From a virus (Duplodnaviria > Caudoviricetes): a stretch of 64,000 nucleotides of DNA. The notes beneath the pieces were generated by a model, which worked only from the letters and a program-made list of their open reading frames with translations, was not told the DNA's origin and made no database searches. Of the stretch, positions 38,885 to 60,604 are shown one piece after another; position 1 is the first letter of the stretch, and each line of letters begins with the position of its first letter. The position numbers and the translations under genes are program-made. The DNA lies in the IMG/VR virus record IMGVR_UViG_3300043177_000122, positions 294,994 to 358,993 of that record. One strand, written 5' to 3'.

Positions 38885-38933
38885 TACTTTTGGATATGTT
38901 TGATTGTTTCTATGCATAACGATAAATAATTGT

Positions 38934-39521
38934 ATGCAAGAAGAACTGGTTAATCAAAAATTTGGAAGACTTACTATCGTTAGCTTGGCCAATTTCAATA
39001 AGTTTCATCAGCGAAGAGTGTTATGTGTTTGCGAATGTGGCAGCAAAAAAGTTGTACTACTTAACAAACTTAAAACGGGACAGACAAATAGTTGCGGATG
39101 TTTGCGTTCAGAAAATGCCAGCAAACAACTTACTGGAGCATCTAATAAAAACCCCAAGATAAAAGGTAAATCAGAACCTAGAATAGCTACTGCAAAAATT
39201 GTATATCGTAGATACTCTGATGGTAACTTATCTTTTGATGATTTTTTATCTCTTAGTCAAAAAGAATGCTTCTATTGTGGCGCCCCGCCCTCAAATAAAA
39301 CTAACTACTATATTACCAAAGAAAGTAAATACTCGAAGGAACGTCAAGCACTTGGTTACTTCATCTATAATGGGCTAGATAGAATAAATAGTGAACTACC
39401 TCATGACATAGATAATGTGGTTCCCTCTTGTATTTACTGTAATAAGGCTAAACTCGACAGAACTCAAGAAGATTTTTTCGCATGGGTAGCTAAAGTTCAT
39501 GATCTACATCCATATCGATAA
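38934..39521 (+). CDS. HNH-type homing endonuclease, paralog of 23169..23801
   Basis: QKFGRLTI, CVCECG, NSCGC, CFYCG, NGLDRIN, NVVPSCIYCN. Start refined to ATG 38934. Confidence 0.8.
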   Translation: MQEELVNQKFGRLTIVSLANFNKFHQRRVLCVCECGSKKVVLLNKLKTGQTNSCGCLRSENASKQLTGASNKNPKIKGKSEPRIATAKIVYRRYSDGNLSFDDFLSLSQKECFYCGAPPSNKTNYYITKESKYSKERQALGYFIYNGLDRINSELPHDIDNVVPSCIYCNKAKLDRTQEDFFAWVAKVHDLHPYR

Positions 39522-40632: not shown

Positions 40633-43182
40633 TTATGGTACCAATCCACCAGCTCCATTCCAAGCTAGATAAATTCCGTTTTGTAAATGTATCCAACGAG
40701 CAGTTCCATTTACTGTACCACCACTTGTATATGCTCCATTGCCCGTCGTACCATTTAATGTAAAGTGAGTGCTATCTACTACTGTGATCACAAAAGTTCC
40801 ATTAGCTGCTGTGTTTCCATTAACGCCAGAAATTACAACCGTCTGACCTGTTGTTAAACTATTAGCAGCAGACGTAGTAATCTGTATTGGTGATGTATTG
40901 CTTGCTTCAGTTACAGTAAGTGAAGCGGTATTCTCTGTGCTTTGTATAAATGCGCCAAAATTAGTTCTACCCTGTCTGATAAACGGAGCAGTGCCAAGTA
41001 ATCTTTGATTGAGACCATATACGGTATTGCCGGTAGCGGGAAATGGCAAATTAAGACCAGGATCCGTTGCTACGCCTCCCCATAATTCCCAAGGTAACAC
41101 CTCAGTAGTGGTAGTAAATGGGCAGTCTCCTGCGTTGGCTGCGTATACAGGAGAAGTTCCTGAAATACCATCAGCGTTAGCCCACCCAGCTAGACCGCAC
41201 ATTTCTGGTACGAAATCTCTGTATGTAAATCCTACATTGAAGTTTATTCCCCATCTTGCTTGAATAGTTCCATAATCTCCCTGGTTATTGCCACCATATA
41301 TAAACGGCCTATTTGAGTTTGCTGGAAGTGGAGTTGGTTCATTATCTGGTAGTCCAAATGTTACAAATCCATTGCTGCCGCCGCCTTGTGGTCTTGCATA
41401 TAGGAAAATGGCGCGGCCAGTATCATCGCCAACTATAGTAATACGTGGTGCAAATGAAGGATTAACAGATCCAATAATTGTATTTGAATATGGATTTCCT
41501 AGAGGAATATTGCTGTCTAAATATTGTGCTATGTGGGTGGTGACTCCGCCAACAGGAAAGTCACCAAAGATACTTCCGCCATAACCTATACTCATCGAGG
41601 CATAATTAGGAGAGCCGGAGATATTCCAAGGCTCACCAGCAATTCTAACCTGCCATCCACTTGAATGCGGGCTCTGAAGTATTATTCTACTGTTAGGTGA
41701 CACATCATCACCTCCAGTATAACCAACACGACTTACAGTCCCTCCACTTGTATAGTTCCCGTTACCAGAAGATCCATTAAGAGTAAATATGCCAGCTCCA
41801 ACCCTAGTAATAGTCCAGGTACCGTTGGCCGCAGTATTACCATTAACTCCAGATATTGTTACTCGTTGTCCAGTATCGTAGTACGAAACAGCACTAAGAT
41901 TTATTGTAATTTGAATGGGTGTTGTGTTTGTTGCGGTATTTATTGAGGTGCTAGTTACTTGATTATTATTTGGTAATAACAAATGTTCTGATATACGAGT
42001 TTCTGTTTCATACAGCCACCAATCCATAGTCTCAGGTGGTGGGGTGTCAGTTGATCTATAATCTATAGTATAAGAATTGGTAGCAGTATTTGTGGCCGTT
42101 ATCTTGAACAATCCACTATTTTTTGTGGGATATTTGCTACTTTTAAGAACTAATATTCTGCCAGTATCACCGGCTGATGGGGCTGCTCCATTTACTACTG
42201 TTCTAACAGTAGTTGGAACTTGTACTGCGTAAACAGAGGGCGCTCCGCCAAAATTAATACTAGCTCCAGTGCCGCCTGCTACGGTTCCAGAAGCAATTAA
42301 TAATCCTTGAGGTAATATTGATGCGGTATTTGCCACAAATGTTGCTGCTACAGTCCAAAGTACTCTTAGTTGGTTTGAACTAACAACTTCTACTTTATAC
42401 GGACCAAAATTTCCAAGGCTAGAGTTATTAAAACCATAAAAACTATTTGATAGATTATTGTTTATAGTAAGATACTCGCCAGTATTCATTCCATGTGGAA
42501 ACTGTGTTGTGATAACCAGAGGATTACCAGAAGCGGTAGAAATTCTATTTGGACCACAAGCTACTCCGCCAATTCCTGCTGATGAAACACTATTACCAGT
42601 AGACATAGTTCCCGTACCGCCAGAACATCCAGTAAAGGTAGTGGCGGTGGTGCCCGTATATGTAACTGTTTGCACTCCAGCAGATGTAACAACGTAAATA
42701 GTTCCAGATGTAGGAAATCCAGTAGTGGAAGCTACGTTAATTGTTGCTGTTGGAAGAGCGACACCATTAGAAGCGGCAGCAATGGTGGTGGTGAACCCCG
42801 AGGACATAGTGCCGGTTCCACCTGTACAATTAGTAAAGGTAGTAGCAGTAGTTCCTGAGTATTTAACTAATTGAACGCCATCGCTAGTTGTGACATATAT
42901 AAGTCCAGAGGCTGGAAATCCAGTGGTAGAAACAACATTGATTGTTGCTTGAGGTAGAGATTGCCCATTAGAAGCGGCAGCGATTGCTGTGTTTTGAGAA
43001 AATGTAAAAGATAAGTTATTTGTATTGTTTAAATCAAATCCTGTATGCCCTACAATAGAGTACCCTAGCACTTTATTTAAAAATACTGCGGTGCTGAATA
43101 GATATGAAACATGTTGAAAGGAAGATGCCGTTGTGTATCCGCTAGTAACGGGAGTAAAATCTCGTAGTATATGAACTGCCAT
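40633..43182 (-). CDS. Modular virion protein, scaffold family A (849 aa): 2 TIAA-type and 3 NPI-type inserted modules
   Basis: MAVHILRDF; shared core motifs RIILQSPH..GWQVR, GRTNFG, HLQNG..W. Confidence 0.75.
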   Translation of the reverse strand: MAVHILRDFTPVTSGYTTASSFQHVSYLFSTAVFLNKVLGYSIVGHTGFDLNNTNNLSFTFSQNTAIAAASNGQSLPQATINVVSTTGFPASGLIYVTTSDGVQLVKYSGTTATTFTNCTGGTGTMSSGFTTTIAAASNGVALPTATINVASTTGFPTSGTIYVVTSAGVQTVTYTGTTATTFTGCSGGTGTMSTGNSVSSAGIGGVACGPNRISTASGNPLVITTQFPHGMNTGEYLTINNNLSNSFYGFNNSSLGNFGPYKVEVVSSNQLRVLWTVAATFVANTASILPQGLLIASGTVAGGTGASINFGGAPSVYAVQVPTTVRTVVNGAAPSAGDTGRILVLKSSKYPTKNSGLFKITATNTATNSYTIDYRSTDTPPPETMDWWLYETETRISEHLLLPNNNQVTSTSINTATNTTPIQITINLSAVSYYDTGQRVTISGVNGNTAANGTWTITRVGAGIFTLNGSSGNGNYTSGGTVSRVGYTGGDDVSPNSRIILQSPHSSGWQVRIAGEPWNISGSPNYASMSIGYGGSIFGDFPVGGVTTHIAQYLDSNIPLGNPYSNTIIGSVNPSFAPRITIVGDDTGRAIFLYARPQGGGSNGFVTFGLPDNEPTPLPANSNRPFIYGGNNQGDYGTIQARWGINFNVGFTYRDFVPEMCGLAGWANADGISGTSPVYAANAGDCPFTTTTEVLPWELWGGVATDPGLNLPFPATGNTVYGLNQRLLGTAPFIRQGRTNFGAFIQSTENTASLTVTEASNTSPIQITTSAANSLTTGQTVVISGVNGNTAANGTFVITVVDSTHFTLNGTTGNGAYTSGGTVNGTARWIHLQNGIYLAWNGAGGLVP

Positions 43183-43184
43183 TT

Positions 43185-45131
43185 TTAAGCTCCACTCGCA
43201 AGAAAGTTATACGGTAGTATAGCGCCATCCCATGGAAGACATATACCATTAACTAAATGAATAAACTCTCCACGATCGCCAATCAGAAAGAATGGTGGTA
43301 ATCCTCCAAATGTTACTCTATGTGGTCTCATTCTTGCTCTGGCAAAAGAAAATTGACCGGCAGCAGATGAAACTGCCATTAGAGTTTCTCCAGTTATTAC
43401 TTTTGCGATTTTATTTTGATATCCTAATTGTGTATTTAAATTAAAACCCACAGTATATGTTGGACCAATGGTAGCGTTAGCAGTATCACCAACAAGGTTT
43501 CTACTAATTAATTGATGAGATCTGGTTGTTCCATCAAACCCAACCATACCAAATGAAGTACAAAAAGAATCTGTGCCAGTACTATTATTCAAAGTATTCC
43601 CACCAGCTAATATAGCAATTAAATTTGGGTCTTGTGTTTGTGTGTATAGTCTAGCTGGCGTAGTTATCATAAAATAAAGACCAGTTGTATTGCCGCCATT
43701 TGTGGGAGATTTAACATGTCCGAAAAAGAAATCCGTGTCAGCAATGAAAGACACAAATCCCGAAACGGCTGATGTGGTTCCAGTAAAATTAGTTGCTGAA
43801 ATTCTTTCAGACATAGTGGTATTACTACCGCTCCCGGAAAATGATGTGCCATTCCAGCTACCATTTGGAGATCCTATGTATCCCATTTGACCAAATGCGT
43901 TGGCAGATCCTCTTAATAGCATCTGAAATTGACTTACAGCAGCGCCCGGATTTATGTTAGGGGCGCCTGTAAAATTACCAATAAAATAGTTACCGTTACC
44001 TATACTTAATTGAGACGCGGCAATCACATCAAGAACTCGATAGCTGAGCGATGCTCTTGCGGTCAAATTATTCTTCAATGAAGAAATGTCAGTCGTACCA
44101 CCACTAAATGGTACAATTTTTATCTGGGTATTTGATGGTACTGCAACTATTCTGTAGATTGAATCATCTGTGCTTGGAGGATTAACTGATACAGATCCAT
44201 TAGGTTGCATTAATCCAGTGCCTCCCGAACATCCAACAAATGTTTGTCCAGTTACAGCATTACCAGTTGTCATAGTCCCAGTACCACCTGAACATCCTGT
44301 AAAGGTTGTTGCTGTTACTCCTGTGTAAGTAACGACTTGTGGCACATTGTTAGAAGTTACTACATTGATTACCCCAGAGGTTGGAAATCCAGTTGTGCTA
44401 GCGACATTGATTGTGGCTTGCGGTAAGACTTGACCGTTTGAACCCGCAGCGATTGTAGTACTAAGTATACCAGTGTAATTTACTGTTTGTAAGCCGGTGC
44501 TACTTTGAACGAAAACAGAGCCGCTGGCTGGAAATCCAATAGTAGATTGAACATTTAAAGTAGATTGTGGTAAAGTGAAACCGGCAGATCCTGGCGCAAT
44601 ACCGCTTCTGGCCCCCGCCAACCAAACAACTATATGCTTACCAATCATAGATTGAGAAAATGGTTGAGAAGATGCCGCTGTAAATGTATCTCCTAATGCA
44701 GATGTTACTCCATCATTACCTACAGCAAGCACGGATGAACCTTCAAAAAATCCACTAGGAGAAGAAGTTGGTGAAATTGGAATACCACCGGGAATAGTAA
44801 CTTGGCCACCAGTAGTGTAATTTGCATTACCCACCGCTCCATTTAAAGCAAATTGCGTAGAATTAACTACAGTAACATTAAATCCACCATTTGCTGAAGT
44901 ATTACCTTGAACCCCATAAACTCCAACTAGTTGGTTATTTGATAGTCCGTGCGGAGTAGATGTAGTTATAACAATTGGATTTGTATTGGAAGCGGCAGTA
45001 ACAGTTAAAATACTAGGGGCACCGTTTACGCAATACGCCCAAAAATTGTAGGCAAGGTTTAAAAAGATAGGGATATCCCTACCATTTGTACCTGTTGTAT
45101 ATTGTAGCCCTCTCAGAAATTTAATGGCCAT
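43185..45131 (-). CDS. Modular virion protein, scaffold family B (648 aa)
   Basis: MAIKFLRGL, FWAYCVNG, one NPI module, one nested TIAA pair. Confidence 0.75.
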   Translation of the reverse strand: MAIKFLRGLQYTTGTNGRDIPIFLNLAYNFWAYCVNGAPSILTVTAASNTNPIVITTSTPHGLSNNQLVGVYGVQGNTSANGGFNVTVVNSTQFALNGAVGNANYTTGGQVTIPGGIPISPTSSPSGFFEGSSVLAVGNDGVTSALGDTFTAASSQPFSQSMIGKHIVVWLAGARSGIAPGSAGFTLPQSTLNVQSTIGFPASGSVFVQSSTGLQTVNYTGILSTTIAAGSNGQVLPQATINVASTTGFPTSGVINVVTSNNVPQVVTYTGVTATTFTGCSGGTGTMTTGNAVTGQTFVGCSGGTGLMQPNGSVSVNPPSTDDSIYRIVAVPSNTQIKIVPFSGGTTDISSLKNNLTARASLSYRVLDVIAASQLSIGNGNYFIGNFTGAPNINPGAAVSQFQMLLRGSANAFGQMGYIGSPNGSWNGTSFSGSGSNTTMSERISATNFTGTTSAVSGFVSFIADTDFFFGHVKSPTNGGNTTGLYFMITTPARLYTQTQDPNLIAILAGGNTLNNSTGTDSFCTSFGMVGFDGTTRSHQLISRNLVGDTANATIGPTYTVGFNLNTQLGYQNKIAKVITGETLMAVSSAAGQFSFARARMRPHRVTFGGLPPFFLIGDRGEFIHLVNGICLPWDGAILPYNFLASGA

Positions 45132-45138
45132 AGTTACC

Positions 45139-47412
45139 TTAAACTAATATTGGTGGTCCGCCCCAAAACATAAACATTCCTCGTCTAATATGCATAAATG
45201 CGCGAGAAGTATCATGAGTTAATGTATATTCTCCGAAATTAGCTCTTCCTTCTCTTATATGCGGGATAGTTCCTATAAATCTCGGTTCTTGTACTGGAAA
45301 AGATGTACCGCTCCAGCCAGTAAAAGTTCCAGCAATCACATCTACTGGGAATAATTCTGTACCGCCTAACCAAGGATTATCTCCAGCGCTGCCGTCAAAA
45401 ATAGGGCTACCGGTTTGTCCAACTCCACTAACGTATGTTATTAGTGATACTGCTGCTGATACCGGAATTGGAGTAGTAGTAGATTTAGTTTCTTGCATAT
45501 TTACTCCTTGAGCTAAATTACTAGCTCCTATGTTACCGGGATACCAGCTAGTGTCATTTAAAAAGTCTCCATTTGAACTGCCCGAGCCGCTGCCAATTGT
45601 AAATAGCCTAGCTTCATTATTACTTGGTAATGGTAAAGGTTCTACTTCTGGTATTCCAAACGTAACCAGAAAAGATTTAGGAGTAGTACCATTACTTGGT
45701 CTACGCCCAATCATGGTCACACCAAGACCATAACCATCGTCTCCAATTATAGTATGTCTATAAGTAGTATTAAGTGTTTGAGGATCTCCGCATCCTATGG
45801 CTCCACCTGAATAAGTTCCACTATTGCTGTTGTAGTATAATGGAGTATGAAGATGCCTTCCGGCAACCAAAAAATCTCCTGCTGAATTACCATCAAATCC
45901 TGGTGACATTGTTATTGGTGGACAATTTGCCTGATCGGTATTTGTTTCATTACAAATTCTAATTTGCCATCCAGTGGTGTGTGGGCTTTGTAAAATTATT
46001 CTCGGTGTCGTGGAATCTCCATTCCCTCTATATTGACCTGCTGGATTCGTATTGTTAGCTCCATTTGTTGGAGCGTTAGCGTCGCTAGCATACAAGTACC
46101 AATTCATACTATCTGTTGGTTCAATAGGCGGTAAACTTGGTGAGAAAAATACTGCTCCACCGGTTGACATAGTGCCAGTTCCACCAGTACATCCTGTAAA
46201 GGTTGTCTCTGTTCTTCCAGTATAAGCTACTTGTTGAACACCAGCGCTAGTTGTTACGAACACATTTCCAGATGGAGAAAACCCGGCAAATACGCTGCCA
46301 CCAGTTGACATTAATCCGGTACCACCAGTACACCCAGTAAATGTAGTAGCGGTTGTGCCAGTATATGCAACAGTCTGAGTACCAGCATTAGTCGTTACGA
46401 AAATAATTCCAGTAGTTGGGAATCCTGTAGTTGAGTCTACGTTAATAGTACCTGTTGGTAACCTAACGTTATTAGATCCTGAGGCAATTGTAGTTGTGGC
46501 TGTTGTAGTAGACGCTACATTGATGGTAGTTTGTGGTAGAGTTTGTCCGTTGGATCCTGCTGCAATAGTTGTAGCAATACCAGCTACAATCGGAGATCCT
46601 CCTAATACGCTACCAGTACCACCCGTACAACCAGTGAACGTAGTTCCAGTTGTACCAGTATAGTTAACTGTTTGCCTTCCTGCTGGAGTACAGATAAAAA
46701 TAGTTCCGCTTGTAGCAAATCCAGATGTTGTACTAACATTAAGGGTACCTGTAGGCAATGCAATACTAGCAGTTACTGAATTATTAGTTGACATGGTTCC
46801 AGTGCCACCGGTGCACCCTGTAAAGGTGGAGCTAGTAGTTCCGGTGTAGTTAACCGTTTGTATTCCGGCATTTGTTGCAACTAAAATTGTGCCGGATGTT
46901 GGAAAACCTGAAGTAGAAGCAACGTTGATAGTACCAGTTGGTAGAGAAACGTTGTTAGAGGCAGCCGCAATAACGGTCGTACCACTCAGAAAAATGCTAG
47001 TTCTATATGCAATACGATATGAATTTGTTCCTGTATCATACCCATCAATTAAAAAACAGCCAGAATTATACGTAGGATTAGAGGTACTTCTTAAAACTAA
47101 TAATCTACCAACATCTACTTGACTAACTACTCTAGTGCCAGCGGGAATAGATACAAAAAATTCTAAACCTGAAGCCAGATTAATACCAGCTTTTGTTCCA
47201 CCAGCAAAAGAAGGTACCGCGGCCGTAGGAGTAGAATCTGCAGTGGCAACTAAAAGTGTGCCCACTGAATTTATATTGAAATTAGTATCTCCAACATATG
47301 TATATAGTAATACTCTTCGAAGAAATATCGCCATCAGATAAGATGGAATATAATTTCTAGCTGGAAACGATACATTTTGTATTAAATAGTCTCGTAATAA
47401 ATGTCTAGCCAT
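45139..47412 (-). CDS. Modular virion protein, scaffold family A (757 aa): 4 TIAA modules
   Basis: MARHLLRDY, VGRLLVLRS, RIILQSPH, GRANFG. Confidence 0.75.
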   Translation of the reverse strand: MARHLLRDYLIQNVSFPARNYIPSYLMAIFLRRVLLYTYVGDTNFNINSVGTLLVATADSTPTAAVPSFAGGTKAGINLASGLEFFVSIPAGTRVVSQVDVGRLLVLRSTSNPTYNSGCFLIDGYDTGTNSYRIAYRTSIFLSGTTVIAAASNNVSLPTGTINVASTSGFPTSGTILVATNAGIQTVNYTGTTSSTFTGCTGGTGTMSTNNSVTASIALPTGTLNVSTTSGFATSGTIFICTPAGRQTVNYTGTTGTTFTGCTGGTGSVLGGSPIVAGIATTIAAGSNGQTLPQTTINVASTTTATTTIASGSNNVRLPTGTINVDSTTGFPTTGIIFVTTNAGTQTVAYTGTTATTFTGCTGGTGLMSTGGSVFAGFSPSGNVFVTTSAGVQQVAYTGRTETTFTGCTGGTGTMSTGGAVFFSPSLPPIEPTDSMNWYLYASDANAPTNGANNTNPAGQYRGNGDSTTPRIILQSPHTTGWQIRICNETNTDQANCPPITMSPGFDGNSAGDFLVAGRHLHTPLYYNSNSGTYSGGAIGCGDPQTLNTTYRHTIIGDDGYGLGVTMIGRRPSNGTTPKSFLVTFGIPEVEPLPLPSNNEARLFTIGSGSGSSNGDFLNDTSWYPGNIGASNLAQGVNMQETKSTTTPIPVSAAVSLITYVSGVGQTGSPIFDGSAGDNPWLGGTELFPVDVIAGTFTGWSGTSFPVQEPRFIGTIPHIREGRANFGEYTLTHDTSRAFMHIRRGMFMFWGGPPILV
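46531..46572. repeat. 42 bp dispersed repeat, copy 1
   Basis: ttgtggtagagtttgtccgttggatcctgctgcaatagttgt; 41/42 identical to 51919-51960. Confidence 0.9.
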
Positions 47413-47419
47413 TTTTACC

Positions 47420-47947
47420 TTACTGTATCCATCTTCCTACTATTTTGATGTCTACTAATGGATTTCCAGAAGGAGGGGTGTAGAATATACCTAAATCTAC
47501 ATTTGGGGGATTTCCATTTGGGTCAAATAATACTGGCGACGGATTTTGGTTTGAATCAAACAATTCTGGACGAGGTACTATTTGTTCAGAAATGATCCAT
47601 GTTTCATATAAACTTGTATTTGGGTTATATCCGGACACCTTATAATATATCTTTTGATCTTTTGGATGCAACAGAATTGGATTATTATCCATTTGTTTTG
47701 ACTGAGTGCTATCAACCAAAACAGTGTTGTAGTTATTGTTAACGCCAAAATAATCTTGGTCTTTAGTAATATTACTAATACCTGTACTTACATCTATAGC
47801 GAGATAATTGTTTGCGATTCCAGCATAGAAAATTTCCACCTCTCCTTGACCATTTCCCAGATCTGTACCCATAAAATTGCTGGAACTACCAGAATAATTT
47901 TCGTTGGTTCCAAAATTAATTGCAGTAATATCTGCCGCATAACTCAT
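47420..47947 (-). CDS. Small virion-associated protein with YYK module (175 aa)
   Basis: MSYAADIT start overlapping the upstream TGA; YYKVSGYN...PPSGNPLVDIKIVGRW. Confidence 0.7.
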   Translation of the reverse strand: MSYAADITAINFGTNENYSGSSSNFMGTDLGNGQGEVEIFYAGIANNYLAIDVSTGISNITKDQDYFGVNNNYNTVLVDSTQSKQMDNNPILLHPKDQKIYYKVSGYNPNTSLYETWIISEQIVPRPELFDSNQNPSPVLFDPNGNPPNVDLGIFYTPPSGNPLVDIKIVGRWIQ

Positions 47948-49701
47948 GGTATTACCTGTGGTCCATTCCAAGTCACATACACGCCTCGCTTCATGTGCAT
48001 CCATGAATGTGAACTATCAGTAGTTACTGTAAAGTTACCAAAATTAGACCTTCCTGCTCTGAGATGTGGTATTGTTCCTAATATTCTGGGTTCAATTGGA
48101 AATACGTTCTCAATTCCTGCATTTCCATTCCAGGTAGCAAATGTTCCTGCCAATAAATCTACCGAGAATAATTCAGTAGATCCACTCCATGGACTATCTG
48201 CCGCAGAACCATCAAAAATAGGACTTCCAAATTGAGCTACTCCAGAAACATAAGTCCACAATGATGGAACGCAGCTACAAGGAACACCTCCCTGAGTTTG
48301 TGTTACTCCCTGACACCAGTTACCACGGTTTAAATCTCCAGAACTTCCCTGATACAAAATATTAGGAGACCAGCTTATATCGTTAAGAGAGTTGCCATAT
48401 CCGCCGATACCACCAGTACTAATTCCGCTTCCGATCATAAATAATCTAGCTACATTATTCACTGGCAGTGGTGTTGGTTCATTTTCAGCTAAACCACAAG
48501 CAAAGAAATAATCTTGTGGTACGCTAATAAAACTTACTGCTGGGTTAAACTGTCTGCGGCCAAAAATAACTACACCTTGTCCTGTGTCATCTCCGACAAG
48601 CGTTAATCTCCACGAGAATGGCCAGTAACTACTTGGTGTACCATTAACAGAAGAATCATCTCCAAATCCTGGTGCAGTTCCTGCAAATTTGGTTGTGTTA
48701 TTTGTATTATAGTAAAGTGGTCCATGTAAGTGTGGGCCAGCTACAGCAAAATCTCCAGCAGAATTACCGCCAAAACCAGGCACACAAGTAATAGTGGGCA
48801 CATTGCCATAATTACCGTTGCTATTAAAATTTTGACTATAATCAGCAAATGTTTCATGACATAGCCTAACTTGCCAGCCCAATGCATGAGGGCTTTGCAT
48901 TATAATACGTGGGGTAGTAGAGTTTCCATATCCTCCGTACGTACCGCTATTTACAGCTACCCATGTACTGTTTGGAGATCCAGATGCTGGAGCAGCAGTG
49001 TCCTTTTCATAAATGTACCAATTCATGCTACCAAATGGTTCGACCGGTGGAAATCCGGTAGCACCCATTGTTCTATAGTCGATAATGTAGCAATTAGTTG
49101 TAACAGTACCTCCGCTTGTGTAGGTACCATTTCCAGTTGTTCCATTTAAAGTAAATTGAGTACTATTTAATACAGTAATTGTAAAAGTCCCGTTAGCTGC
49201 GGTATTACCACCAACTCCAGAAATGACAACAGTTTGCCCTGTAGTTAAAGTATGAGGGGTAGTAGTAGTAATTTGAATTGGTGAAACGGCATTTCCTGAA
49301 GTAGTAGACACTGTATAGTTGAGCGCTTCAAATCCAGTGATAAGATAAATTCCTGAATTATATGTAGAATTAGCTGTGCTTCTTAGAACTAACAATCTAC
49401 CAACATCAGTTAAACTTACTGTTCTAACCGATGGCGGTATCCAAACATAAAACTCTCTACCGGAACCCTGATTAATCCCAGCTTTGGTGTTGGCTGGAAA
49501 AGTTGGCGTACCAGTTGGAGTAGTGTCGGCCGTAGCAATTAATAGTGTTCCGACAGCATTGATTGGGTAATTAGTGTCACCAACATAACTATACAATAGT
49601 ATTCTTCTCAGAAAAATACCCATCAGATAGCCACATATCCATTGCTTTGCATTAGTTGTTATGTTCTGAGTGAAATAATCTCGAACTGTGTGTATAGCCA
49701 T
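47944..49701 (-). CDS. Modular virion protein, scaffold family A (585 aa): 1 NPI module
   Basis: MAIHTVRDY, VGRLLVLRS, RIIMQSPH, GRSNFG. Confidence 0.75.
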   Translation of the reverse strand: MAIHTVRDYFTQNITTNAKQWICGYLMGIFLRRILLYSYVGDTNYPINAVGTLLIATADTTPTGTPTFPANTKAGINQGSGREFYVWIPPSVRTVSLTDVGRLLVLRSTANSTYNSGIYLITGFEALNYTVSTTSGNAVSPIQITTTTPHTLTTGQTVVISGVGGNTAANGTFTITVLNSTQFTLNGTTGNGTYTSGGTVTTNCYIIDYRTMGATGFPPVEPFGSMNWYIYEKDTAAPASGSPNSTWVAVNSGTYGGYGNSTTPRIIMQSPHALGWQVRLCHETFADYSQNFNSNGNYGNVPTITCVPGFGGNSAGDFAVAGPHLHGPLYYNTNNTTKFAGTAPGFGDDSSVNGTPSSYWPFSWRLTLVGDDTGQGVVIFGRRQFNPAVSFISVPQDYFFACGLAENEPTPLPVNNVARLFMIGSGISTGGIGGYGNSLNDISWSPNILYQGSSGDLNRGNWCQGVTQTQGGVPCSCVPSLWTYVSGVAQFGSPIFDGSAADSPWSGSTELFSVDLLAGTFATWNGNAGIENVFPIEPRILGTIPHLRAGRSNFGNFTVTTDSSHSWMHMKRGVYVTWNGPQVIP

Positions 49702-49710
49702 TCTGATTCC

Positions 49711-52700
49711 TTATATGATGAAGAACAAGTTTGATGGTAAGATTGTGTTATCCCAAATTATGGCAATACCATTTTGTATATTAAGGAACTGTCCGCTTGG
49801 TGTACCAAATCTGTGATAGAGTGGTAGTTGCGTGCTTGTAAATTTTAGAGTTCTTAATCTTACTCTGCCCAATGAAAATTGTCCTGTTACACCCGGCAAG
49901 CATAGTACACCATCTGAAGCTATTATAGTTCCTCGTGTTGTGTTGAATGCTAATTTAATGTCTGTAAGGTTAGCTCCAAAAGACGGCGAGCCATCTCCTG
50001 CTAAAGATTTAGATAACATTCGATGAACTCTAATAGTTCCAGTAGTATCTTTCATCCAAAAACCATTACCAATAGTTCCGTTACCACCGGCAGATGTACC
50101 ATCACATCTAAAAACAGTTCCATTGAATACTCCACCTCTTGTATTTACTATTACAGGATTTATATCCGCAGATTGTGGATAAAGTCTGATTGGAATTTCA
50201 CAGTGGAAATATGATGATCCATCTCCACTGTTTATATCTTTGTAATGCATCCAGAAGAATGCCGGATCAGCAGCCATTGTCATAGCCATAGTGTTAGCTG
50301 GGCCAGTGTTGAAGATATTTCCACTCAGTGTATTATTGAATTGTGCAGTTGCATCTATCTGCGGATCTCCAGTGACAGGAAATGTAAGGCCATTCCAATT
50401 TCCTCCTGGAGAAATAATAGTGCCAATGGTACCGGCAGTATCATTTCCAAACATTTGTACCTGGCTATTGGCTTGGCCAGGATTAATACCAACTGCTGAT
50501 GGATTGAATTGCATAACCATATAGTTTCCGTTGCCGCTACTAAATGTTTGAGCAAGTCCAGCATCCACAATTCTATAGTTGATATTTGTTCTATTAGTAA
50601 ATGATGGGTGTAGATTTGTTGGATCGGGAGTGCCCCCAGTATTCAAATTGACTCTAATAGAGTTAGGACTATTAACAGCAGTGATTATGTAGATAGCATC
50701 TTCAGTAGTTCCAGAATTTGGCTTCCACATTATTAACAGTTTTCCAACCATATTGCTGGTTGTAACTGTTTGTGTTCCACCACTGGTCCAAGATCCGTTT
50801 GGGGCAGAATTATTTAGGTATATACTATTACGATTGGCAATAGATCCTCCGCTTGTATATGTTCCTGATGCAAAAGATCCGTTTAATGTAGCAATTCTAT
50901 TGCTAATTGCTGTGGTTAAAAATGTGCTATTAGCATTTGGCAAACCACCTATTCCAGATGTTATAACAGTCTGTCCAGTTAGTAATGTATGGAAATCGGA
51001 AGTGATAACAGTAATTGGCGACAGTATAGTATTTCCAGTAGTCATTGTACCGGTACCGCCCGAACAACCAGTGAAAGTATTATGAGTGGTTCCAGTATAG
51101 CTTACTGTTTGAACTCCGGCGCTACTTGTGATATTAAAAGATCCGCTTGAGGCATAGTTAATAGTCACTGGATTGCCGGTTGACATGGTGCCAATACCGC
51201 CCGAACAACCAGTGAAAGTTGTGCCGGTCGTTCCAGTGTAAGTAACTGGTTGATATCCAAGAGTGGTTAAAACATAAATGTATCCACTAGTTGGGAATCC
51301 TGTGGTAGACGCAACGTTAATAGTAGATTGTGGTAAGGCTTGTCCGTTAGAAGCAACAGCAATCGAAGTATAGTTGCTTGCTGGAGAAAATGCCGTAAAT
51401 ACAGCACCGTCCGAGGAGGTATTTCCTGTACCACCAGAAGCCCCAGTTAATGTAGTGGCTGTTACTCCAGTATATGTTACTAGTTGAGATCCGTTAGTAG
51501 TAGTAATATAAAGTGAGCCAGTAGTTGGGAAATTGGTAAAGAAACCAGTATTATTTACAGTATTACCAGTAAACATAGTTCCAACACCACCTAGTGCTCC
51601 AGTAAATGTAGTTGCTGTTGTGCCAGTATATGTAACAGCTTGATTAAATGGTCCACCACCGATTGGGTTATTAATCAGTAAAGTACCAGTACCACCTGTT
51701 ACACCAGTAAATGATGTAGCGGTAATTCCAGTATAAGTAACTGAGGTAGCTGCATAAACAGTGCCACCAGTTGACATGGTACCACCTCCGCCAGAACATC
51801 CAGTAAAGGTAGTAGCAGTGGTACCAGTATATGTAACTATCTGAGAACCAGTGCTGGTTGTTACAAAAATTGTACCAGAGGCTGCAAATCCAGTCGTAGA
51901 CGCTACGTTGATAGTTCCTTGTGGTAGAGCTTGTCCGTTGGATCCTGCTGCAATAGTTGTTTGAATAGCGTTATCTGCTACACTTAGTGTGCCGCTGGTT
52001 GGAAATCCACTAGTAGTAGATACGTTAATAGTTGATTGTGGGAGTGATTGCCCGCTAGATCCAAGTGCAATACTTGTTACAACTATTGTTGCAACATTCA
52101 AAGTACCAGAGGTTGGGAATCCGGTAGTAGAGGCTACGTTAATTGTGCCTGTCGGCAGATTAACATTGTTAGAGGCAGCAGCTACAGTTGTAGAGGCAGT
52201 TGCGGTAGCAGCTACGTTAATAGTTGCTTGTGGGAGCGTTTGAACACCAGTTGTAGTTGTAAATGGTGCAACAGTACTTGAGTTAACAGTTGCTTGTGGC
52301 AATGTGGCACCGTTTGATGGAAACGCCGTAGTAGTATTAAAATATGTTGCATTAGAAATAGAGTTAGTTGGTGTATTAATAGTCCACGTACCATTAGCTG
52401 TGGTATTTCCAGTTACTCCGCTTACAACAACTGATGCCAAGTTAACATAAGAATTTGCCGCGGTCATATTTACTGAAATTGGAGCATACACAGCGCCATC
52501 AATAGACATAGTTCCTGTACCACCTGAACATCCTGTAAAGGTTGTTCCCGTAATTCCTGTATATGTAACTGTTTGTATACCAGCACTAGTGGTGACATGA
52601 ATTGTTCCAGAACTTGGGAATCCGATAGAAATAGATCCGCCAGTTTGCATAGATCCTCGACCTAAAGTACATCCGGTAAACGTAGTTGCAGTTATACCGG

Positions 52701-53484
52701 TGTACAAAACTAACTGGGTGCCCTCTGTTGTCTGCACATTTAGAAATCCACCTGATGGAAATCCTGTTGTGGAGGCTACGTTAATAGTGCCAGTTGGCAG
52801 AGAAACATTGTTAGAGGCAGCAGCGATAGTTGTGCTAGCGGTAGTTGTGGAGGCAACATTGATTGTTGCTTGAGGTAAACTTTGTCCGTTAGATCCTGCT
52901 GCGATTGTAGTTCTGTAATTAGAAACATTATTAATAGTAAAGCTAGTGTTTAAATTAGTAAAAGGATTAATATTTGTGGCATTAAAAATAGCATTGCCAT
53001 TAACGTTGGTACTTATTTGAGCTGGAGTATATCCATCATTGCCAATTGCTAAAACAGGAGTTCCTTCAGTAAAGTTAACTGGCCAAGCGAATGGTGTAGT
53101 GTTAACAGTTCCACCACCAGTATATGAACCATTTCCAGTTGATCCATTTAAACTAAATGTAGTTGTGCTTGTGACAGTAATTTGGAAGGTACCATTGGCC
53201 GCTAAATTACCGAGCACGCCAGAAATTGTAACTTGTTGTCCAGTAAATAAAGCATTAGTTGTGGTAGTGGTTATTACAATTGGAGAAACGCCAGCTCCCG
53301 TAGTGTTTGATACGGAATAGGTTGTGCTCATAGTGGTTGCAAATCCGCCTGGAGATTGAAGGCTAGAAGTACCATTAACGCAATATCCCCAGAACTCGTA
53401 GAGTATTTTAAGGAACTCGGAAGCTCTTCCAGTTTGGTTATAGTTGTAAAGTAGTCCTCGACAGAACCTTAGTGAAGTTGGCAT
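49711..53484 (-). CDS. Modular virion protein, scaffold family B (1257 aa), recursively nested modules
   Basis: FCRGLLY, FWGYCVNG; 8 TIAA-type and 3 NPI-type modules, most of them nested. Confidence 0.78.
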   Translation of the reverse strand: MPTSLRFCRGLLYNYNQTGRASEFLKILYEFWGYCVNGTSSLQSPGGFATTMSTTYSVSNTTGAGVSPIVITTTTTNALFTGQQVTISGVLGNLAANGTFQITVTSTTTFSLNGSTGNGSYTGGGTVNTTPFAWPVNFTEGTPVLAIGNDGYTPAQISTNVNGNAIFNATNINPFTNLNTSFTINNVSNYRTTIAAGSNGQSLPQATINVASTTTASTTIAAASNNVSLPTGTINVASTTGFPSGGFLNVQTTEGTQLVLYTGITATTFTGCTLGRGSMQTGGSISIGFPSSGTIHVTTSAGIQTVTYTGITGTTFTGCSGGTGTMSIDGAVYAPISVNMTAANSYVNLASVVVSGVTGNTTANGTWTINTPTNSISNATYFNTTTAFPSNGATLPQATVNSSTVAPFTTTTGVQTLPQATINVAATATASTTVAAASNNVNLPTGTINVASTTGFPTSGTLNVATIVVTSIALGSSGQSLPQSTINVSTTSGFPTSGTLSVADNAIQTTIAAGSNGQALPQGTINVASTTGFAASGTIFVTTSTGSQIVTYTGTTATTFTGCSGGGGTMSTGGTVYAATSVTYTGITATSFTGVTGGTGTLLINNPIGGGPFNQAVTYTGTTATTFTGALGGVGTMFTGNTVNNTGFFTNFPTTGSLYITTTNGSQLVTYTGVTATTLTGASGGTGNTSSDGAVFTAFSPASNYTSIAVASNGQALPQSTINVASTTGFPTSGYIYVLTTLGYQPVTYTGTTGTTFTGCSGGIGTMSTGNPVTINYASSGSFNITSSAGVQTVSYTGTTHNTFTGCSGGTGTMTTGNTILSPITVITSDFHTLLTGQTVITSGIGGLPNANSTFLTTAISNRIATLNGSFASGTYTSGGSIANRNSIYLNNSAPNGSWTSGGTQTVTTSNMVGKLLIMWKPNSGTTEDAIYIITAVNSPNSIRVNLNTGGTPDPTNLHPSFTNRTNINYRIVDAGLAQTFSSGNGNYMVMQFNPSAVGINPGQANSQVQMFGNDTAGTIGTIISPGGNWNGLTFPVTGDPQIDATAQFNNTLSGNIFNTGPANTMAMTMAADPAFFWMHYKDINSGDGSSYFHCEIPIRLYPQSADINPVIVNTRGGVFNGTVFRCDGTSAGGNGTIGNGFWMKDTTGTIRVHRMLSKSLAGDGSPSFGANLTDIKLAFNTTRGTIIASDGVLCLPGVTGQFSLGRVRLRTLKFTSTQLPLYHRFGTPSGQFLNIQNGIAIIWDNTILPSNLFFII
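51919..51960. repeat. 42 bp dispersed repeat, copy 2
   Basis: ttgtggtagagcttgtccgttggatcctgctgcaatagttgt. Confidence 0.9.
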
Positions 53485-53523: not shown

Positions 53524-54483
53524 TTATGCAAACCAAGTATCTATCACTTCAGGAGTAGAATATGGGCCTGAGCACGGGAAAGCTGGTGCATTTGCTAAAG
53601 AAATTTGCGTATCAACCCAAACAACCGGAGTAGGAGTGACGCAGGATGTATCATAAGCTCTCAATTTGTAATATTGAACGGCGCTAGTAACTGTGATTGG
53701 TAGTGCTCCAACTTTATAAATCAACTTAAAATAGTCTAATGTTCTTTCTACGTTGGCCACTCTAATATCTTGAATAAGAATATTTGGCTCTTCTTTGTTA
53801 GATGAGCCAGTTGCAGTAATAGCTCCAGTTCTCCAGAAACCAAATCCGTTAATACCATCTGTATAAGATATTGAGGCTGCCGGAAATGTATTAAGCTGAA
53901 CACCAGCCGAATATCTAATACATTGAATGCCATTTAAATAAGCTCTTACAGATGTTCCATCGTAAGACATTCCTATATGAGACCATTGTTGTAATGGAAT
54001 TGGAAAATCTGTAACGTTAAATGAAGCATTTGTAGAAGAATTTAAAGCGAGTTCTGCTCCCCAATCTTGACCACCATTAGATGTAAACGTGGATAAATTA
54101 ATAGCCTGAAATGGTGCTGCCCAACTTGATGTAATTGTACTATCTCTGTATTCTTTAGCAACTATTGTTGTATTATTAGAAGTGGTGTAAGATTTTAAAT
54201 ATATCCAACAAGAAAGAGAAATTGGAGGGCTTGGATTTATCGTTCTAGCTCCAGCGGCATAATTTCTAGTTGCAGAAGCTCCTGTTGGGTAATTTCCTGT
54301 GCTAGGAAATTGTGCACAAGGATCATCGAATACGCCCGTACCAGTTCTTACTATCGTATTGGTAATGTTTAAATCTGTAGTAGTATCATTAGGAGATAGA
54401 GAGCCCGAATTTCTATAAGGCCCCGAAGTTTCATTCAACCTCCATACTAAAATATCATTTACATCAGGTGGTATTCTGGCCAT
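53524..54483 (-). CDS. LamG/concanavalin-A-like lectin-domain protein with C-terminal YYK module
   Basis: VWRLNE, SLSCWI, WSHIGMSYDG...YLNG, IQDIRV. Confidence 0.8.
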   Translation of the reverse strand: MARIPPDVNDILVWRLNETSGPYRNSGSLSPNDTTTDLNITNTIVRTGTGVFDDPCAQFPSTGNYPTGASATRNYAAGARTINPSPPISLSCWIYLKSYTTSNNTTIVAKEYRDSTITSSWAAPFQAINLSTFTSNGGQDWGAELALNSSTNASFNVTDFPIPLQQWSHIGMSYDGTSVRAYLNGIQCIRYSAGVQLNTFPAASISYTDGINGFGFWRTGAITATGSSNKEEPNILIQDIRVANVERTLDYFKLIYKVGALPITVTSAVQYYKLRAYDTSCVTPTPVVWVDTQISLANAPAFPCSGPYSTPEVIDTWFA

Positions 54484-54486
54484 ATG

Positions 54487-55428: not shown

Positions 55429-55437
55429 TAGTTTTCC

Positions 55438-57655: not shown

Positions 57656-60604
57656 ATGAGTAATTATCCTTTTAGTTTCGACAATAACATAACCCTCCCT
57701 GGTGTTTCTGGAAGTTCACAGGAAGATGTAGCTATTACTGCGCTTAGAAGTGCGGTTTTTGCCATTGAAACAGAGTTGGGCGTAACGCCTAGTGGAATTT
57801 ATCCAGATGTCAGAACTAGATTAGATATTTTAGAATCTAGGCTCCAATTTGGGGTTTCTCCGCAAATTCCAAATGATGGTTATGTAAAAAGTCCTTTATA
57901 TATCTGGAATGTGCCTCAAAATGTAGTTTTAAGCATTAGTGACGGCTACGGCGCTCCCACCGAAAATAGATTAGACGGCTCTCTTTATATGAGAGGTGGG
58001 GATGGTTACGCTAATAATCAACTTTATGTTAGGTTAAATGGCCAATGGAAGCCCGTTCAAACTGAACAATTTGTTGCATCAAATGATCTAATTGGATATC
58101 CTCCTGGTTCAGACGGGCATTTAGCTCAAACAGTTGTGGGTTTGTATAACCATCCATTTGCCACAACTATGAACTCTGTTGGTGCCATTCAAGATGGTTA
58201 CCATGTTACCTGGAATAACTTTACCAGTCACTGGGAAGAACAAACTGGATTTATACCAGGTCGTGATTTGATGGCATTTTCTGGCCCTTATGGCCGCACC
58301 GGTCAGCAAGTTATTGGTCTGCAAGGATTCCCATTATCAGGGTTCCCTCCAACTGACGGATATACATTAGTCTGGCAGGCATCGGATAACCGCTGGGAAC
58401 CACAAGCCCGTGCAGTTGTATTCGATGGTTATGTTGCTCGTGTTAATTTGAGGTCCAACCGCGCTCAACAATCACCAATTTTAAACACTAAGACTGGAAT
58501 TGTAAACTTTGGAACTGATACAAGTGGAGCGAGCCTCGGAGCCACCAACGACTATGCTATAATTTTAGGTGGTGACAGAAACCTTTCATCCGGAATTCAT
58601 GCAATCACAGTAGGCGGTTTTGCTAATAATTCTTCGGATGGCTATGCCTTAATAATTAACGGAAATTCTAACATAGCGTCTGCCCAAAACTCGACAGTAC
58701 TTAATGGAATTACCAACACAGCTAGCGGAATACGATCATTTGTACTTAATGGTACATCAAATACTGCTTCCGGTGTCAACTCGTTCGTTGGTAATGGAAC
58801 TAGTAACACAGCCGCAGCTAATCTTTCTGCAATTCTAAACGGATCTTCTAATAGTATTTCTATAGGATCCACACACACAGGTATTGGGTTTGGAACAAAT
58901 AACCAAATAACAGGCGGGGCAGCTTCTCAATTCTCTGTTATTATTGGCGGCACCACAAATGTAATTTCTAGTGCAGAAAATGTTCTGATCGGCGTTCCAG
59001 ATAGTTCTGATTCGGCCGCGCCACATTCTATTCTGTTATCTGGTGTAAATAACTCTATACTTACACTGTCTGATTATTCTGCGGTCTTAACCGGCGTAAA
59101 TAATACAGTAAACATTTCTTCAGAATATGGATTCATTGGAACCGGTCAAAACAACAGCGTAACCGGCCACTTCTCTACTATTTTGAATGCTGATACTTCT
59201 ACGGTTAATGGTCAGCACGCTACGGTTCTAAAAGGACTTAGCAACAGCGCAACTGGTCCATACTCCACTATTGTTAATGGTAATAATAACCTTATCAATA
59301 GTGCTGGTTGGAGTATTATCCTCGATGGATACAATAATAGTGTAACTGGTACCGGCTCATTTATTGCTGATGGTTACAATAATAGTGTTTCTGGGTTCTT
59401 TTCATCCATTCTAAATGGTAACTTCAATACTATTGCAGGTAGAAATAGCACTGTATTAAATGGTGCCAATAATACCATAGACTCTACTAGTGCCGAGAGC
59501 ACAGTTATAGTTGGAGCTAATAACTCATTCGTTAACTCGGCCAATACTACTGCAACTGGAAGTGGAAATACTTTCACAAACGCCGCCCAGACTTTTGTAA
59601 TTGGAACTACTAATAGTATTCAATCGGCCTCTTCGTTTATTAACGGTTCAACTAACACACTTGCAGCCGGATCTATATTTAACAGAATGTTTGGCTCCTT
59701 TAACACTATTGGCGCTAATGCATCTACTAATTTTATTATTGGTAATGCAAATATTATTGGCCCATCTAATACTACATCCAATACTATAGTACTAGGAACT
59801 AATAACTTAGTTGATAACTCTAATACAGTACTTATCAGAGGATCTAGCAATATAGCCAACTCTAATTTTGGTAGTGTAAGTGGTCAATTTGGTAAATCTA
59901 GGATGTTTGGCCAAGAAGTTAGAGCCAACTCTAGATTTACTTCTACTACCATTGCGGCTGGTTCTAACGGAGCTAGCTTGCCACAAGCTACAATTAACGT
60001 AGCATCTACCGCAGGATTTCCAGCTAGCGGATCAATTGCAGTTATTACCTCATTAGGTATGCAATCCGTGAACTATTCTGGTACAACTGGAACTAGTTTC
60101 ACAGGATGCTCTGGTGGTACTGGTACTATGTCAACTGGTAATGCAGTTGGTAAAATTGGTGAGGCTCAGTGGTCACACTTAGTATTAACTGGCATGGCTG
60201 CTGGTGGTGCGGCTGTTCCACTACAATTACAGGATGCTATTGCAGCTAATCCAACTTTTGTTGATGGTTATTCTTATGATTTAAGCATCAAAGTGCTTAT
60301 AGTAAATACATCTCCAATTACACCAAATCCTGTTGTTCCTGCAAGATATTATATTGATGTACTTGCACATCAGGAAAGTGGTGTCTTAGTTCTTGATAAT
60401 ATTAACTATACTTTATCTACACCTAACACGGTAGATAGTATATCTAGAACGCCTTGGACAGTTACAGTTTCTACCAATGGCGCTAACCAAATGTTAGTTA
60501 CGGTTGATACCGAATCAATTACTTCCTACGTGCAACCAAGCAATACTCCATCTGACAGAAGGGCAATTGCTACGATTGAAATGCGAGAAATTTCGAGAAT
60601 ATAA
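57656..60604 (+). CDS. Tail fibre/adhesin-like protein (982 aa) with YadA-head-like approx. 15 aa repeats and one TIAA module
   Basis: Periodic S.V..G..N.A..G pattern from about 58550 to 59900; GDL.G / GLQG.P repeats; 10 DGY motifs. Confidence 0.75.
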   Translation: MSNYPFSFDNNITLPGVSGSSQEDVAITALRSAVFAIETELGVTPSGIYPDVRTRLDILESRLQFGVSPQIPNDGYVKSPLYIWNVPQNVVLSISDGYGAPTENRLDGSLYMRGGDGYANNQLYVRLNGQWKPVQTEQFVASNDLIGYPPGSDGHLAQTVVGLYNHPFATTMNSVGAIQDGYHVTWNNFTSHWEEQTGFIPGRDLMAFSGPYGRTGQQVIGLQGFPLSGFPPTDGYTLVWQASDNRWEPQARAVVFDGYVARVNLRSNRAQQSPILNTKTGIVNFGTDTSGASLGATNDYAIILGGDRNLSSGIHAITVGGFANNSSDGYALIINGNSNIASAQNSTVLNGITNTASGIRSFVLNGTSNTASGVNSFVGNGTSNTAAANLSAILNGSSNSISIGSTHTGIGFGTNNQITGGAASQFSVIIGGTTNVISSAENVLIGVPDSSDSAAPHSILLSGVNNSILTLSDYSAVLTGVNNTVNISSEYGFIGTGQNNSVTGHFSTILNADTSTVNGQHATVLKGLSNSATGPYSTIVNGNNNLINSAGWSIILDGYNNSVTGTGSFIADGYNNSVSGFFSSILNGNFNTIAGRNSTVLNGANNTIDSTSAESTVIVGANNSFVNSANTTATGSGNTFTNAAQTFVIGTTNSIQSASSFINGSTNTLAAGSIFNRMFGSFNTIGANASTNFIIGNANIIGPSNTTSNTIVLGTNNLVDNSNTVLIRGSSNIANSNFGSVSGQFGKSRMFGQEVRANSRFTSTTIAAGSNGASLPQATINVASTAGFPASGSIAVITSLGMQSVNYSGTTGTSFTGCSGGTGTMSTGNAVGKIGEAQWSHLVLTGMAAGGAAVPLQLQDAIAANPTFVDGYSYDLSIKVLIVNTSPITPNPVVPARYYIDVLAHQESGVLVLDNINYTLSTPNTVDSISRTPWTVTVSTNGANQMLVTVDTESITSYVQPSNTPSDRRAIATIEMREISRI

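Follow-up and report, generated by a model that had tools for sequence, protein, structure and literature searches.

How a few neighbouring virion genes came to carry the same two short coding modules over and over, each time in a different loop of the encoded protein, is the question raised by a 64,000-nucleotide stretch of phage DNA (here called the window), the final 64 kb of the 358,993-bp IMG/VR record IMGVR_UViG_3300043177_000122 (Duplodnaviria; Caudoviricetes), which is 83% complete by CheckV estimate. The modules, designated TIAA and NPI, lie in three paralogous A-type scaffolds (A585, A757 and A849) and two paralogous B-type scaffolds (B648 and B1257) encoded at 40633-53484, and in two neighbouring proteins, C982 and D966. 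A first-pass annotation made from the sequence alone described them as in-frame mobile coding cassettes, either adaptive surface decoration or selfish protein-coding elements. The analysis reported here favours, with a probability of about three in four, the slow accretion of two decoration barrels into permissive loops of baseplate-arm proteins, a process that would be old and selected and not the work of jumping DNA, and in which the modules were apparently also inserted into each other.

The five open reading frames (ORFs) of the A and B scaffolds had been placed correctly on the minus strand, and every junction quoted for them is present in their translations. Profile hidden Markov models (HMMs) were built from the clean window copies and used to scan all six frames of the whole genome, and they returned the same numbers of copies in the window that had been counted before, namely 19 TIAA (A849 2, B648 2, A757 4, B1257 8, C982 1 and D966 2) and 10 NPI (A849 2 and 1 degenerate, A585 1, B648 1, B1257 3, of which 1 is split, and D966 2). 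In the genome NPI is confined to the window genes, and TIAA is found only in A849, B648, A757, B1257, C982, D966 and one 369-aa ORF. The genes and their modules, apart from the nested blocks that are given below, are as follows (aa, amino acid positions):

40633..43182, minus strand: A849, A-type scaffold
42586-42990 (aa 65-199), minus strand: TIAA tandem pair of A849 (HMM)
42283-42540 (about aa 215-300), minus strand: degenerate NPI-like segment of A849 (HMM)
41725-41940 (aa 415-486), minus strand: NPI of A849 (HMM)
40699-40911 (aa 758-828), minus strand: NPI of A849 (HMM)
43185..45131, minus strand: B648, B-type scaffold
44790-44999 (aa 45-114), minus strand: NPI of B648 (HMM)
45139..47412, minus strand: A757, A-type scaffold
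46588-46980 (aa 145-275), minus strand: two tandem TIAA of A757 (HMM)
47944..49701, minus strand: A585, A-type scaffold
49087-49302 (aa 134-205), minus strand: single NPI (FCCH) of A585, in the loop between ITGFEALNY and TNCYIIDYR (PF16190, 38.7 bits)
49711..53484, minus strand: B1257, B-type scaffold
aa 61-132 of B1257, minus strand: NPI (HMM)
57656..60604, plus strand: C982, a scaffold different from A and B
59945-60148 (aa 764-831), plus strand: TIAA of C982, between ANSRFT and GKIGEAQ
61102..63999, plus strand: D966, open at its 3' end
61420-61626 and 62164-62397 (aa 107-175 and 355-432), plus strand: two NPI of D966 (HMM)
63412-63615 and 63637-63858 (aa 771-838 and 846-919), plus strand: two TIAA of D966 (HMM)
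G000:C1:262823-263929, plus strand: the 369-aa ORF with one complete TIAA (80 bits), the sole genome copy beyond the window

The degenerate NPI of A849 reaches E<0.01 in the orthologs of two related loci (L010 and L011). The gene at 61102 had been credited with three internal repeats, one of them bearing an insertion; D966 does contain its NPI and TIAA copies, but the three-fold repeat itself did not hold up (self-BLAST E 1e-3). The second TIAA of this protein (63637-63858) contains an extra stretch of about 6-8 aa, apparently at the β3-β4 turn, which is one of three TIAA loops that elsewhere receive whole modules.

The likeness of NPI to the FCCH domain of E1 enzymes, which the first-pass annotation had proposed, is correct both by Pfam and by fold. 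Against the PF16190 gathering score of 29.5 bits the copies of A849, A585 and D966 score 51.2, 38.7 and 38.0 bits, and B1257 stands right at the cut-off with 29.5; the B648 copy falls below it (23.3 bits), yet it is 56% identical to the A585 copy. Taken from the AlphaFold2 (AF2) model of B648, NPI superposes on the FCCH domains of human UBA6 and UBA1, with a root-mean-square deviation (rmsd) of 1.9 Å over 79 columns at 23% identity for 7pvn_A and of 2.0 Å over 80 columns for 4p22_B, while the structural search gave 4p22_B at Z 11.2 (rmsd 2.0, 77 residues aligned) and 2v31 at Z 10.2. According to this model NPI is predicted to be a six-strand closed β-barrel of the E1_FCCH type. Because no other E1 domain (adenylation/ThiF or catalytic cysteine) was found by the Pfam scan of the seven proteins, the module-bearing proteins are not E1 enzymes and have the barrel alone in common with them. 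On the tail tubes of siphophages FCCH has been described as a decoration that faces outward (PMC13576161). Profile comparison indicated no relation between NPI and TIAA.

The TIAA unit has 68 residues and no family match in Pfam, NCBIfam, PHROG or PDB sequences; the Pizza-propeller and PLK4, which came up in the PDB search with the TIAA profile, were rejected as relatives since their matches are insignificant. A profile search against 1.84 billion cluster representatives detected the module in 2,328 representatives when E<=1e-3 was required and in 957 when the limit was E<=1e-10; these proteins are between 250 and 3,300 aa long, and the atlas neighbours of the TIAA proteins are almost entirely Uroviricota. 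In both AF2 models (B648 and A757) TIAA is predicted as a compact six-strand barrel, and the solved structures closest to it are small barrels that serve phage tails as accessory (decoration) domains, represented by the Mystique tail tube (9n71_B, Z 7.9), GP4 (8jov_1, Z 7.7) and the Chi tail tip (8vjh, Z 7.0-7.2), with the P22 coat I-domain (2m5s) also among the neighbours at Z 6.0. In one metagenomic protein of 1558 aa (P0190) TIAA stands alongside a pectate-lyase-like, tailspike-type domain (PF12708), and it is therefore also used on depolymerase-type receptor-binding proteins.

The first-pass annotation proposed to mask the modules and align the scaffolds, and the module-free scaffolds do align over their full length. 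After excision A585 and A757 are 49.5% identical (E 1e-155) and A585 and A849 33% identical (E 3e-45), both full length; A757 and A849 share 31.5% identity, and B1257 and B648 share 31.9% identity over 486 columns (E 2e-61). Between A and B no sequence relation was obtained by profile comparison, where just a 20-residue C-terminal motif appeared at a probability of 15%, and PHROGs and NCBIfam contain no family for the scaffolds. The AF2 models of B648 (predicted local distance difference test, pLDDT, 81.7; predicted template modelling score, pTM, 0.84) and A757 (pLDDT 83.8, pTM 0.83) both match 8rk3_c, with Z 16.1, rmsd 4.1 and 255 of 317 residues aligned over the model range 4-635 for B648, and Z 16.3, rmsd 3.9 and 253 of 317 residues over the range 4-751 for A757; the next unrelated structural matches lie at Z 8 or below. 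By the genome record and a PDB sequence look-up 8rk3_c is gp47 of phage JBD30, and the A and B scaffolds are thus predicted by the models to have the JBD30 gp47 fold over their entire length. Every insertion keeps the reading frame and lies between secondary-structure elements of the models.

In JBD30 the tail-fibre-forming gp47 has a partner of similar fold, gp48; each lateral arm consists of three gp47/gp48 heterodimers and embraces the type IV pilus (PMC11445458). By analogy, the A and B proteins may build gp47/gp48-like baseplate arms. In four related loci (L012-L015) and on an 80-kb contig of a relative the gene order is B-A-B-A-g-B-A, with three B-A pairs, and in the window it is B-A-g194-A-B-A, where g194 is a small gene. 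As compared with the three pairs of the relatives, one B paralog is missing or placed elsewhere in the window clade, which bears on the building of the arm. The complex prediction for B516 and A483 of L014 gave no verdict, the chains being folded without alignments at pLDDT 39-51.

A feature absent from the claims of the first-pass annotation is the nesting of modules within modules. Partial TIAA matches of the HMM have complementary coordinates on both sides of complete copies, and in a peel test every complete module was cut out, the flanks were rejoined and the sequence was rescanned with the HMM. In B648, A757 and B1257 the rejoined outer halves were full-length modules at 70-94 bits, the restored outer TIAA scoring 78 bits in B648 and 85 bits in A757, and B1257 gave four clean peel rounds and two weaker shells. 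According to this reconstruction the B1257 nest, situated in a loop of the B scaffold, appears to be six levels deep. The nested features are the following:

44190-44603, minus strand: block of B648 made up of an outer TIAA (aa 177-224 + 294-314) with its inner copy (HMM, peel test)
aa 225-293 of B648, minus strand: inner complete TIAA, enclosed by the outer TIAA (HMM)
46150-46572, minus strand: block of A757 made up of the third, outer TIAA (aa 281-306 + 375-421) with its inner copy (HMM, peel test)
aa 307-374 of A757, minus strand: inner TIAA, enclosed by the outer TIAA (HMM)
aa 192-331 of B1257, minus strand: nested TIAA pair (HMM)
50761-52485 (aa 334-908), minus strand: probable six-deep block of B1257, about 575 aa (HMM, peel test)
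aa 334-374/884-908 of B1257, minus strand: shell 1 of the block, split NPI
aa 384-412/774-819 of B1257, minus strand: shell 2, TIAA
aa 413-431/644-695 of B1257, minus strand: shell 3, TIAA
aa 432-469/609-643 of B1257, minus strand: shell 4, TIAA
aa 470-508/577-608 of B1257, minus strand: shell 5, TIAA
aa 509-576 of B1257, minus strand: core of the block, TIAA
aa 706-773 and aa 820-883 of B1257, minus strand: siblings within the block, TIAA and NPI, respectively

The TIAA copies are split at HMM positions about 23-29, 33-36 and 46-49, which on the model of an intact copy are the β2-β3 loop, the β3-β4 turn and the β4-β5 loop. Structural alignment of the A757 model gave one barrel that is the inner copy (304-376, Z 7.9) and a second one over the discontinuous range 277-423/425 with just 65-74 residues aligned; in B648 the second barrel spans the discontinuous range 173-317, the aligned residues numbering 65-92 across the A757 and B648 cases. 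Such a discontinuous match of the outer barrel with few aligned residues is as expected for a domain-in-domain arrangement. Nested TIAA, split and restorable, is also present in 29 of the 144 best TIAA proteins from outside the window, and nesting is a trait of the TIAA family.

The insertions had been proposed to sit in different loops of paralogous scaffolds, with each site filled in one gene and empty in another, and such filled and empty sites were found in both comparisons, of paralogs and of orthologs. At least 176 homologs of the A scaffold were recovered, of which about 50, spanning the family, are module-free with 455-516 aa (roughly 480 aa), and all insertions mapped onto a module-free reference define at least 7 insertion sites. 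The loop at reference positions 128-132 is occupied by NPI in A585 orthologs and by a TIAA nest in another subfamily. As for A849, its L010 ortholog has one TIAA there, and the loop is empty in A849 of the window and in the L009 and L011 orthologs. Orthologs of A585, at identities between 91% and 50%, retain NPI in its loop, and those of A757 retain the architecture of two tandem copies plus a nested one. B648 orthologs have either no module (425-436 aa), NPI (about 500-514 aa), NPI and TIAA (565-592 aa) or NPI and TIAA with a second TIAA inside it (643-673 aa); a tree built solely from module-free columns requires 7 state changes, the possible minimum being 3, and its outgroup is empty. On this scaffold tree single-TIAA forms are embedded among nested ones, which implies that modules were not just gained but also precisely lost. 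The orthologs of B1257 in the sister clade have 515-541 aa and a single NPI, as compared with 1,255-1,260 aa in the window clade. The C982 junction RANSRF[TIAA]GKIGEAQ was confirmed, the TIAA being a clean 68-aa indel against the L012 and L014 orthologs, which are without exactly those residues. The comparison of orthologs, likewise suggested beforehand, shows that module positions differ among relatives and are not one ancient fixed set; within the window subclade (L009, L010 and L011, 57-78% identity to A585) the architecture is nearly invariant.

The copies themselves are old. Within the window they are 57-71% identical at the DNA level with a proportion of synonymous differences (pS) of 0.51-0.87 (TIAA median 0.68), and identical residues have identical codons at a frequency of 0.42, where codon usage alone would give 0.39. 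Module copies of the six related loci reach at most 0.75 nucleotide identity in any pair, lineage-specific modules included, and synonymous sites are saturated between copies in all seven genomes sampled. Against L009, which has an identical architecture at a synonymous distance (dS) of about 1.4, the ratio of nonsynonymous to synonymous substitution (dN/dS) is 0.069 for TIAA, 0.050 for NPI and 0.110 for the scaffold, the constraint on the modules being no weaker than that on the scaffolds. Each module is closest to the module of the same slot in L009 (0.79-0.96 identity); at greater distances orthologous and paralogous identities converge, so that gene conversion between the copies is not required, although it may have occurred. 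Terminal inverted repeats, palindromes and target-site duplications were absent at the modules, the inverted-repeat search giving just two weak inverted pairs unrelated to module ends, and no intein or homing-endonuclease domain (Hint, endonuclease) was found by Pfam within the inserts, which are 68-72 aa barrels retained in the reading frame of all orthologs. Target duplications at the junctions, which the first-pass annotation had asked for, were looked for and not found; as to junction microhomology, the closest filled and empty ortholog pairs share 45-68% protein identity and are too diverged to be read at the DNA level. These properties fit vertically inherited functional domains, unlike recently mobile or junk DNA.

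The cluster stretch 40633-53484 was also found in Logan contigs from freshwater metagenomes of three studies, two runs carrying it identically and perhaps being its source, and the third study contributing short fragments with 0-4 differences in each roughly 180 nt. The contigs of these runs contain no deletion alleles, although contigs cannot reveal rare variants. Three apparent joints in the freshwater contigs were rejected, being really the other TIAA gene of the same contig aligned at low likeness.

According to the accretion reading, to which the probability given at the outset belongs, the cluster would encode two sequence-unrelated, fold-related families of baseplate arm or fibre-forming proteins with the JBD30 gp47 fold. 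FCCH-type barrels and 68-aa TIAA barrels would have been copied in frame into surface loops of these scaffolds, into two neighbouring virion proteins and into the modules themselves, the insertion of module into module leading to branched nested bouquets of up to six levels. The barrels are real domains kept by purifying selection and most likely face outward as adhesion or decoration domains, adding reach and avidity for the host surface. Gains would be rare, arising by illegitimate recombination in frame, with selection then favouring those insertions that a loop can tolerate; one-module losses and contractions would proceed by recombination between module copies, and no dedicated mobility machinery would be necessary. 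The adaptive surface decoration offered as one alternative in the first-pass annotation fits such folded barrels under purifying selection on baseplate-arm proteins. In this account the identity and nesting of the modules, the scaffold fold, the differences among orthologs and the age and constraint of the copies come from the data, whereas outward orientation, adhesion, the pairing of A with B and the route of recombination are interpretation. Several points weigh against this account: the A/B fold match depends on AF2 models; the TIAA fold matches of Z 7-8 lie in the 'common arrangement' range of the tool and speak for no more than a class of fold; HMM support is weak for the outer two shells of B1257 (TIAA N-part 10 bits, E 2.5e-5; NPI C-part 3.8 bits, E 0.004); the outward orientation is taken by analogy and the binding function of both modules is putative; no donor-recipient pair or recent event was caught for the recombination that we infer; and the fact that just two modules succeeded repeatedly, at more than 10 sites, may indicate that some mechanistic bias acts besides selection.

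Of the other explanations, the likeliest is differential loss from a heavily decorated ancestor, with the empty sites being precise deletions by recombination between repeats. The repeats supply the substrate for such deletions, and the single-TIAA forms inside the nested clade (P0135/P0147/P0149 and P0140/P0142) are best read as one-module losses; as an account of the whole pattern it is nevertheless unlikely, since the outgroup and the deepest B lineages are empty, an A ancestor would have to be filled at no fewer than 7 sites and to carry modules of different type in one loop, module-free A proteins (about 50, roughly 480 aa long) occur across the family, and the B1257 orthologs of the sister clade have 515-541 aa against 1,255-1,260 aa in the window clade. 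It is less probable still that TIAA and NPI were spread by a dedicated copy-and-paste process acting on the coding DNA of virion genes, whose episodes of activity would predate the sampled genomes, for example by recombination targeted to module-boundary codons or by endonuclease-assisted gene conversion into loops; if true, this would be a new class of domain-level mobile element that builds branched receptor-binding bouquets and changes host range.

Very little credence can be given to the other half of the earlier proposal, that the modules are selfish in-frame mobile coding elements. They would then be a protein-coding counterpart of the Rickettsia palindromic elements (RPEs), spread by DNA-level transposition or homing and persisting because they land in loops where they are harmless. 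Cassettes of roughly 70 aa do stand in frame at more than 10 loops of at least 4 unrelated scaffold types and inside each other, the orthologous filled and empty sites have precise boundaries, a gene for an HNH endonuclease (38904-39521) adjoins the cluster, and RPEs show that in-frame selfish insertions exist (PMC10969869). Nevertheless, the modules are without terminal inverted repeats, palindromes or target-site duplications, their DNA copies are 57-75% identical with saturated synonymous sites across seven genomes, the encoded barrels have a dN/dS of 0.05-0.07, below the scaffold value, the architecture is fixed across a dS of about 1.4, and copies occur in virion genes alone instead of all over the 359-kb genome. 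The view of the modules as selfish or currently mobile DNA is consequently not supported by the data; for the distant past it keeps a small probability, though no positive support. It is hardly credible, finally, that the nesting is only apparent and that TIAA is a two-part repeat whose N- and C-halves are stacked in an up-and-down fibre by half-unit tandem duplications. The order abcd-abcd-ef-ef formally equals two such duplications, and MAFFT aligns single-module and nested forms in more than one register, but the AF2 models contain a compact inner barrel and a second barrel over the discontinuous outer halves, the split points vary among three loops with a complete unit always inside, and NPI, a different fold, also hosts TIAA and occupies the same loops.

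Several known systems resemble parts of this arrangement. The FCCH domain on siphophage tail tube proteins (NBD2 gp39 and MED16 gp13; PF08813 + FCCH; PMC13576161) belongs to the same Pfam family and has the same six-strand barrel as NPI, and it too is an outward-facing accessory domain on a tail structural protein, present in some members of the host family only, with the orientation of NPI being presumed; the siphophage domain is a single N-terminal fusion, whereas NPI occupies internal loops at several sites, a protein may have more than one copy of it, and other modules can interrupt it. The JBD30 proteins gp47 and gp48 (PDB 8rk3; PMC11445458), like A and B, are fold-similar and sequence-dissimilar proteins encoded side by side. 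In that siphophage they form a single pair, of 318 and 307 aa, without decoration, in contrast to the three A and two B paralogs of the window phage (three pairs in relatives), a phage of about 360-500 kb in which these proteins are up to four-fold enlarged by barrels; no sequence similarity between the JBD30 proteins and A/B is detectable, and for A/B both the pairing and a receptor are putative.

In the P22 coat protein the I-domain, like the modules, is a small lineage-specific β-barrel in a loop of a conserved scaffold. Bacterial RNA polymerase contains lineage-specific insertions of small β-barrels, the sandwich-barrel hybrid motifs (SBHMs), with 2-5 SBHMs in the trigger loop. To our knowledge, the six-level depth, the more than 10 sites and the interchange of two unrelated barrels in the same loops go beyond the known FCCH/Ig-like, P22 I-domain and SBHM cases. 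For the RPEs, in-frame selfish repeats were reportedly described by Ogata et al. in 2000. Like the modules they are short in-frame cassettes, of about 45-70 aa, at fold-compatible positions in many proteins (PMC10969869), but they are palindromic DNA repeats visible at the nucleotide level in unrelated housekeeping genes, while TIAA and NPI have no DNA-level signature, form conserved barrels under strong purifying selection and are found in virion proteins only.

The genes around the cluster and elsewhere in the window, which has a guanine plus cytosine content of about 38-40%, include those for a TubZ-like tubulin, a UvsW-like helicase, DnaB, ribonucleotide reductase and PhoH, and the following ones were located:

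13066-14427, plus strand: tubulin/TubZ-like gene (PF00091, PF22453)
38904-39521, plus strand: HNH endonuclease-like gene abutting the cluster
39536-40327, plus strand: M23 peptidase gene abutting the cluster
47420-48004, minus strand: small gene g194, 194 aa from the first ATG, which would overlap the A585 3' end by 61 nt
53524-56160, minus strand: three tandem paralogs of 319, 313 and 240 aa with a ConA-like/Laminin_G_3 domain (PHROG 'virion structural protein')

On the 80-kb contig of the relative the M23 peptidase is likewise adjacent, with a GIY-YIG gene close by. The ConA-like paralogs stand directly upstream of the cluster, a synteny kept in a distant relative. A homolog of g194 (164-194 aa), without family match, is kept in all relatives, but its place differs: it lies between A585 and A757 in the window and L009-L011, and in L012-L015 and on the 80-kb contig it follows the second B-A pair. 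A Pfam sheath family was met in the genome as a sub-threshold match only (19.7 bits). Against 50,697 cultured phage records no match was obtained for the tubulin (tblastn), for the cluster (megablast), for A585 (tblastn) or for a TIAA pair (tblastn), the last query being perhaps masked as low complexity. The clade seems, from these searches, to be without a cultured representative, and the source phage is placed in an uncultured freshwater jumbo phage clade.

In summary, TIAA is a large uncharacterised phage domain family of more than 2,300 clusters, which inserts in loops and accepts insertions in three loops of its own, and the filled and empty orthologous sites record how the putative baseplate-arm proteins, at first about 430-480 aa long, grew to 1,257 aa by insertions that were both stepwise and recursive. 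For protein evolution and design this offers what is probably a natural six-level nesting and a pair of insertion-tolerant minimal barrels, and for annotation it implies that phage matches to E1 FCCH are decoration domains and not ubiquitin enzymes. In respect of phage biology the cluster directs attention to the apparatus by which an uncultured freshwater jumbo-phage clade contacts its host, and, as far as the models predict, it would extend the JBD30 gp47/gp48 arm architecture to very large phages.

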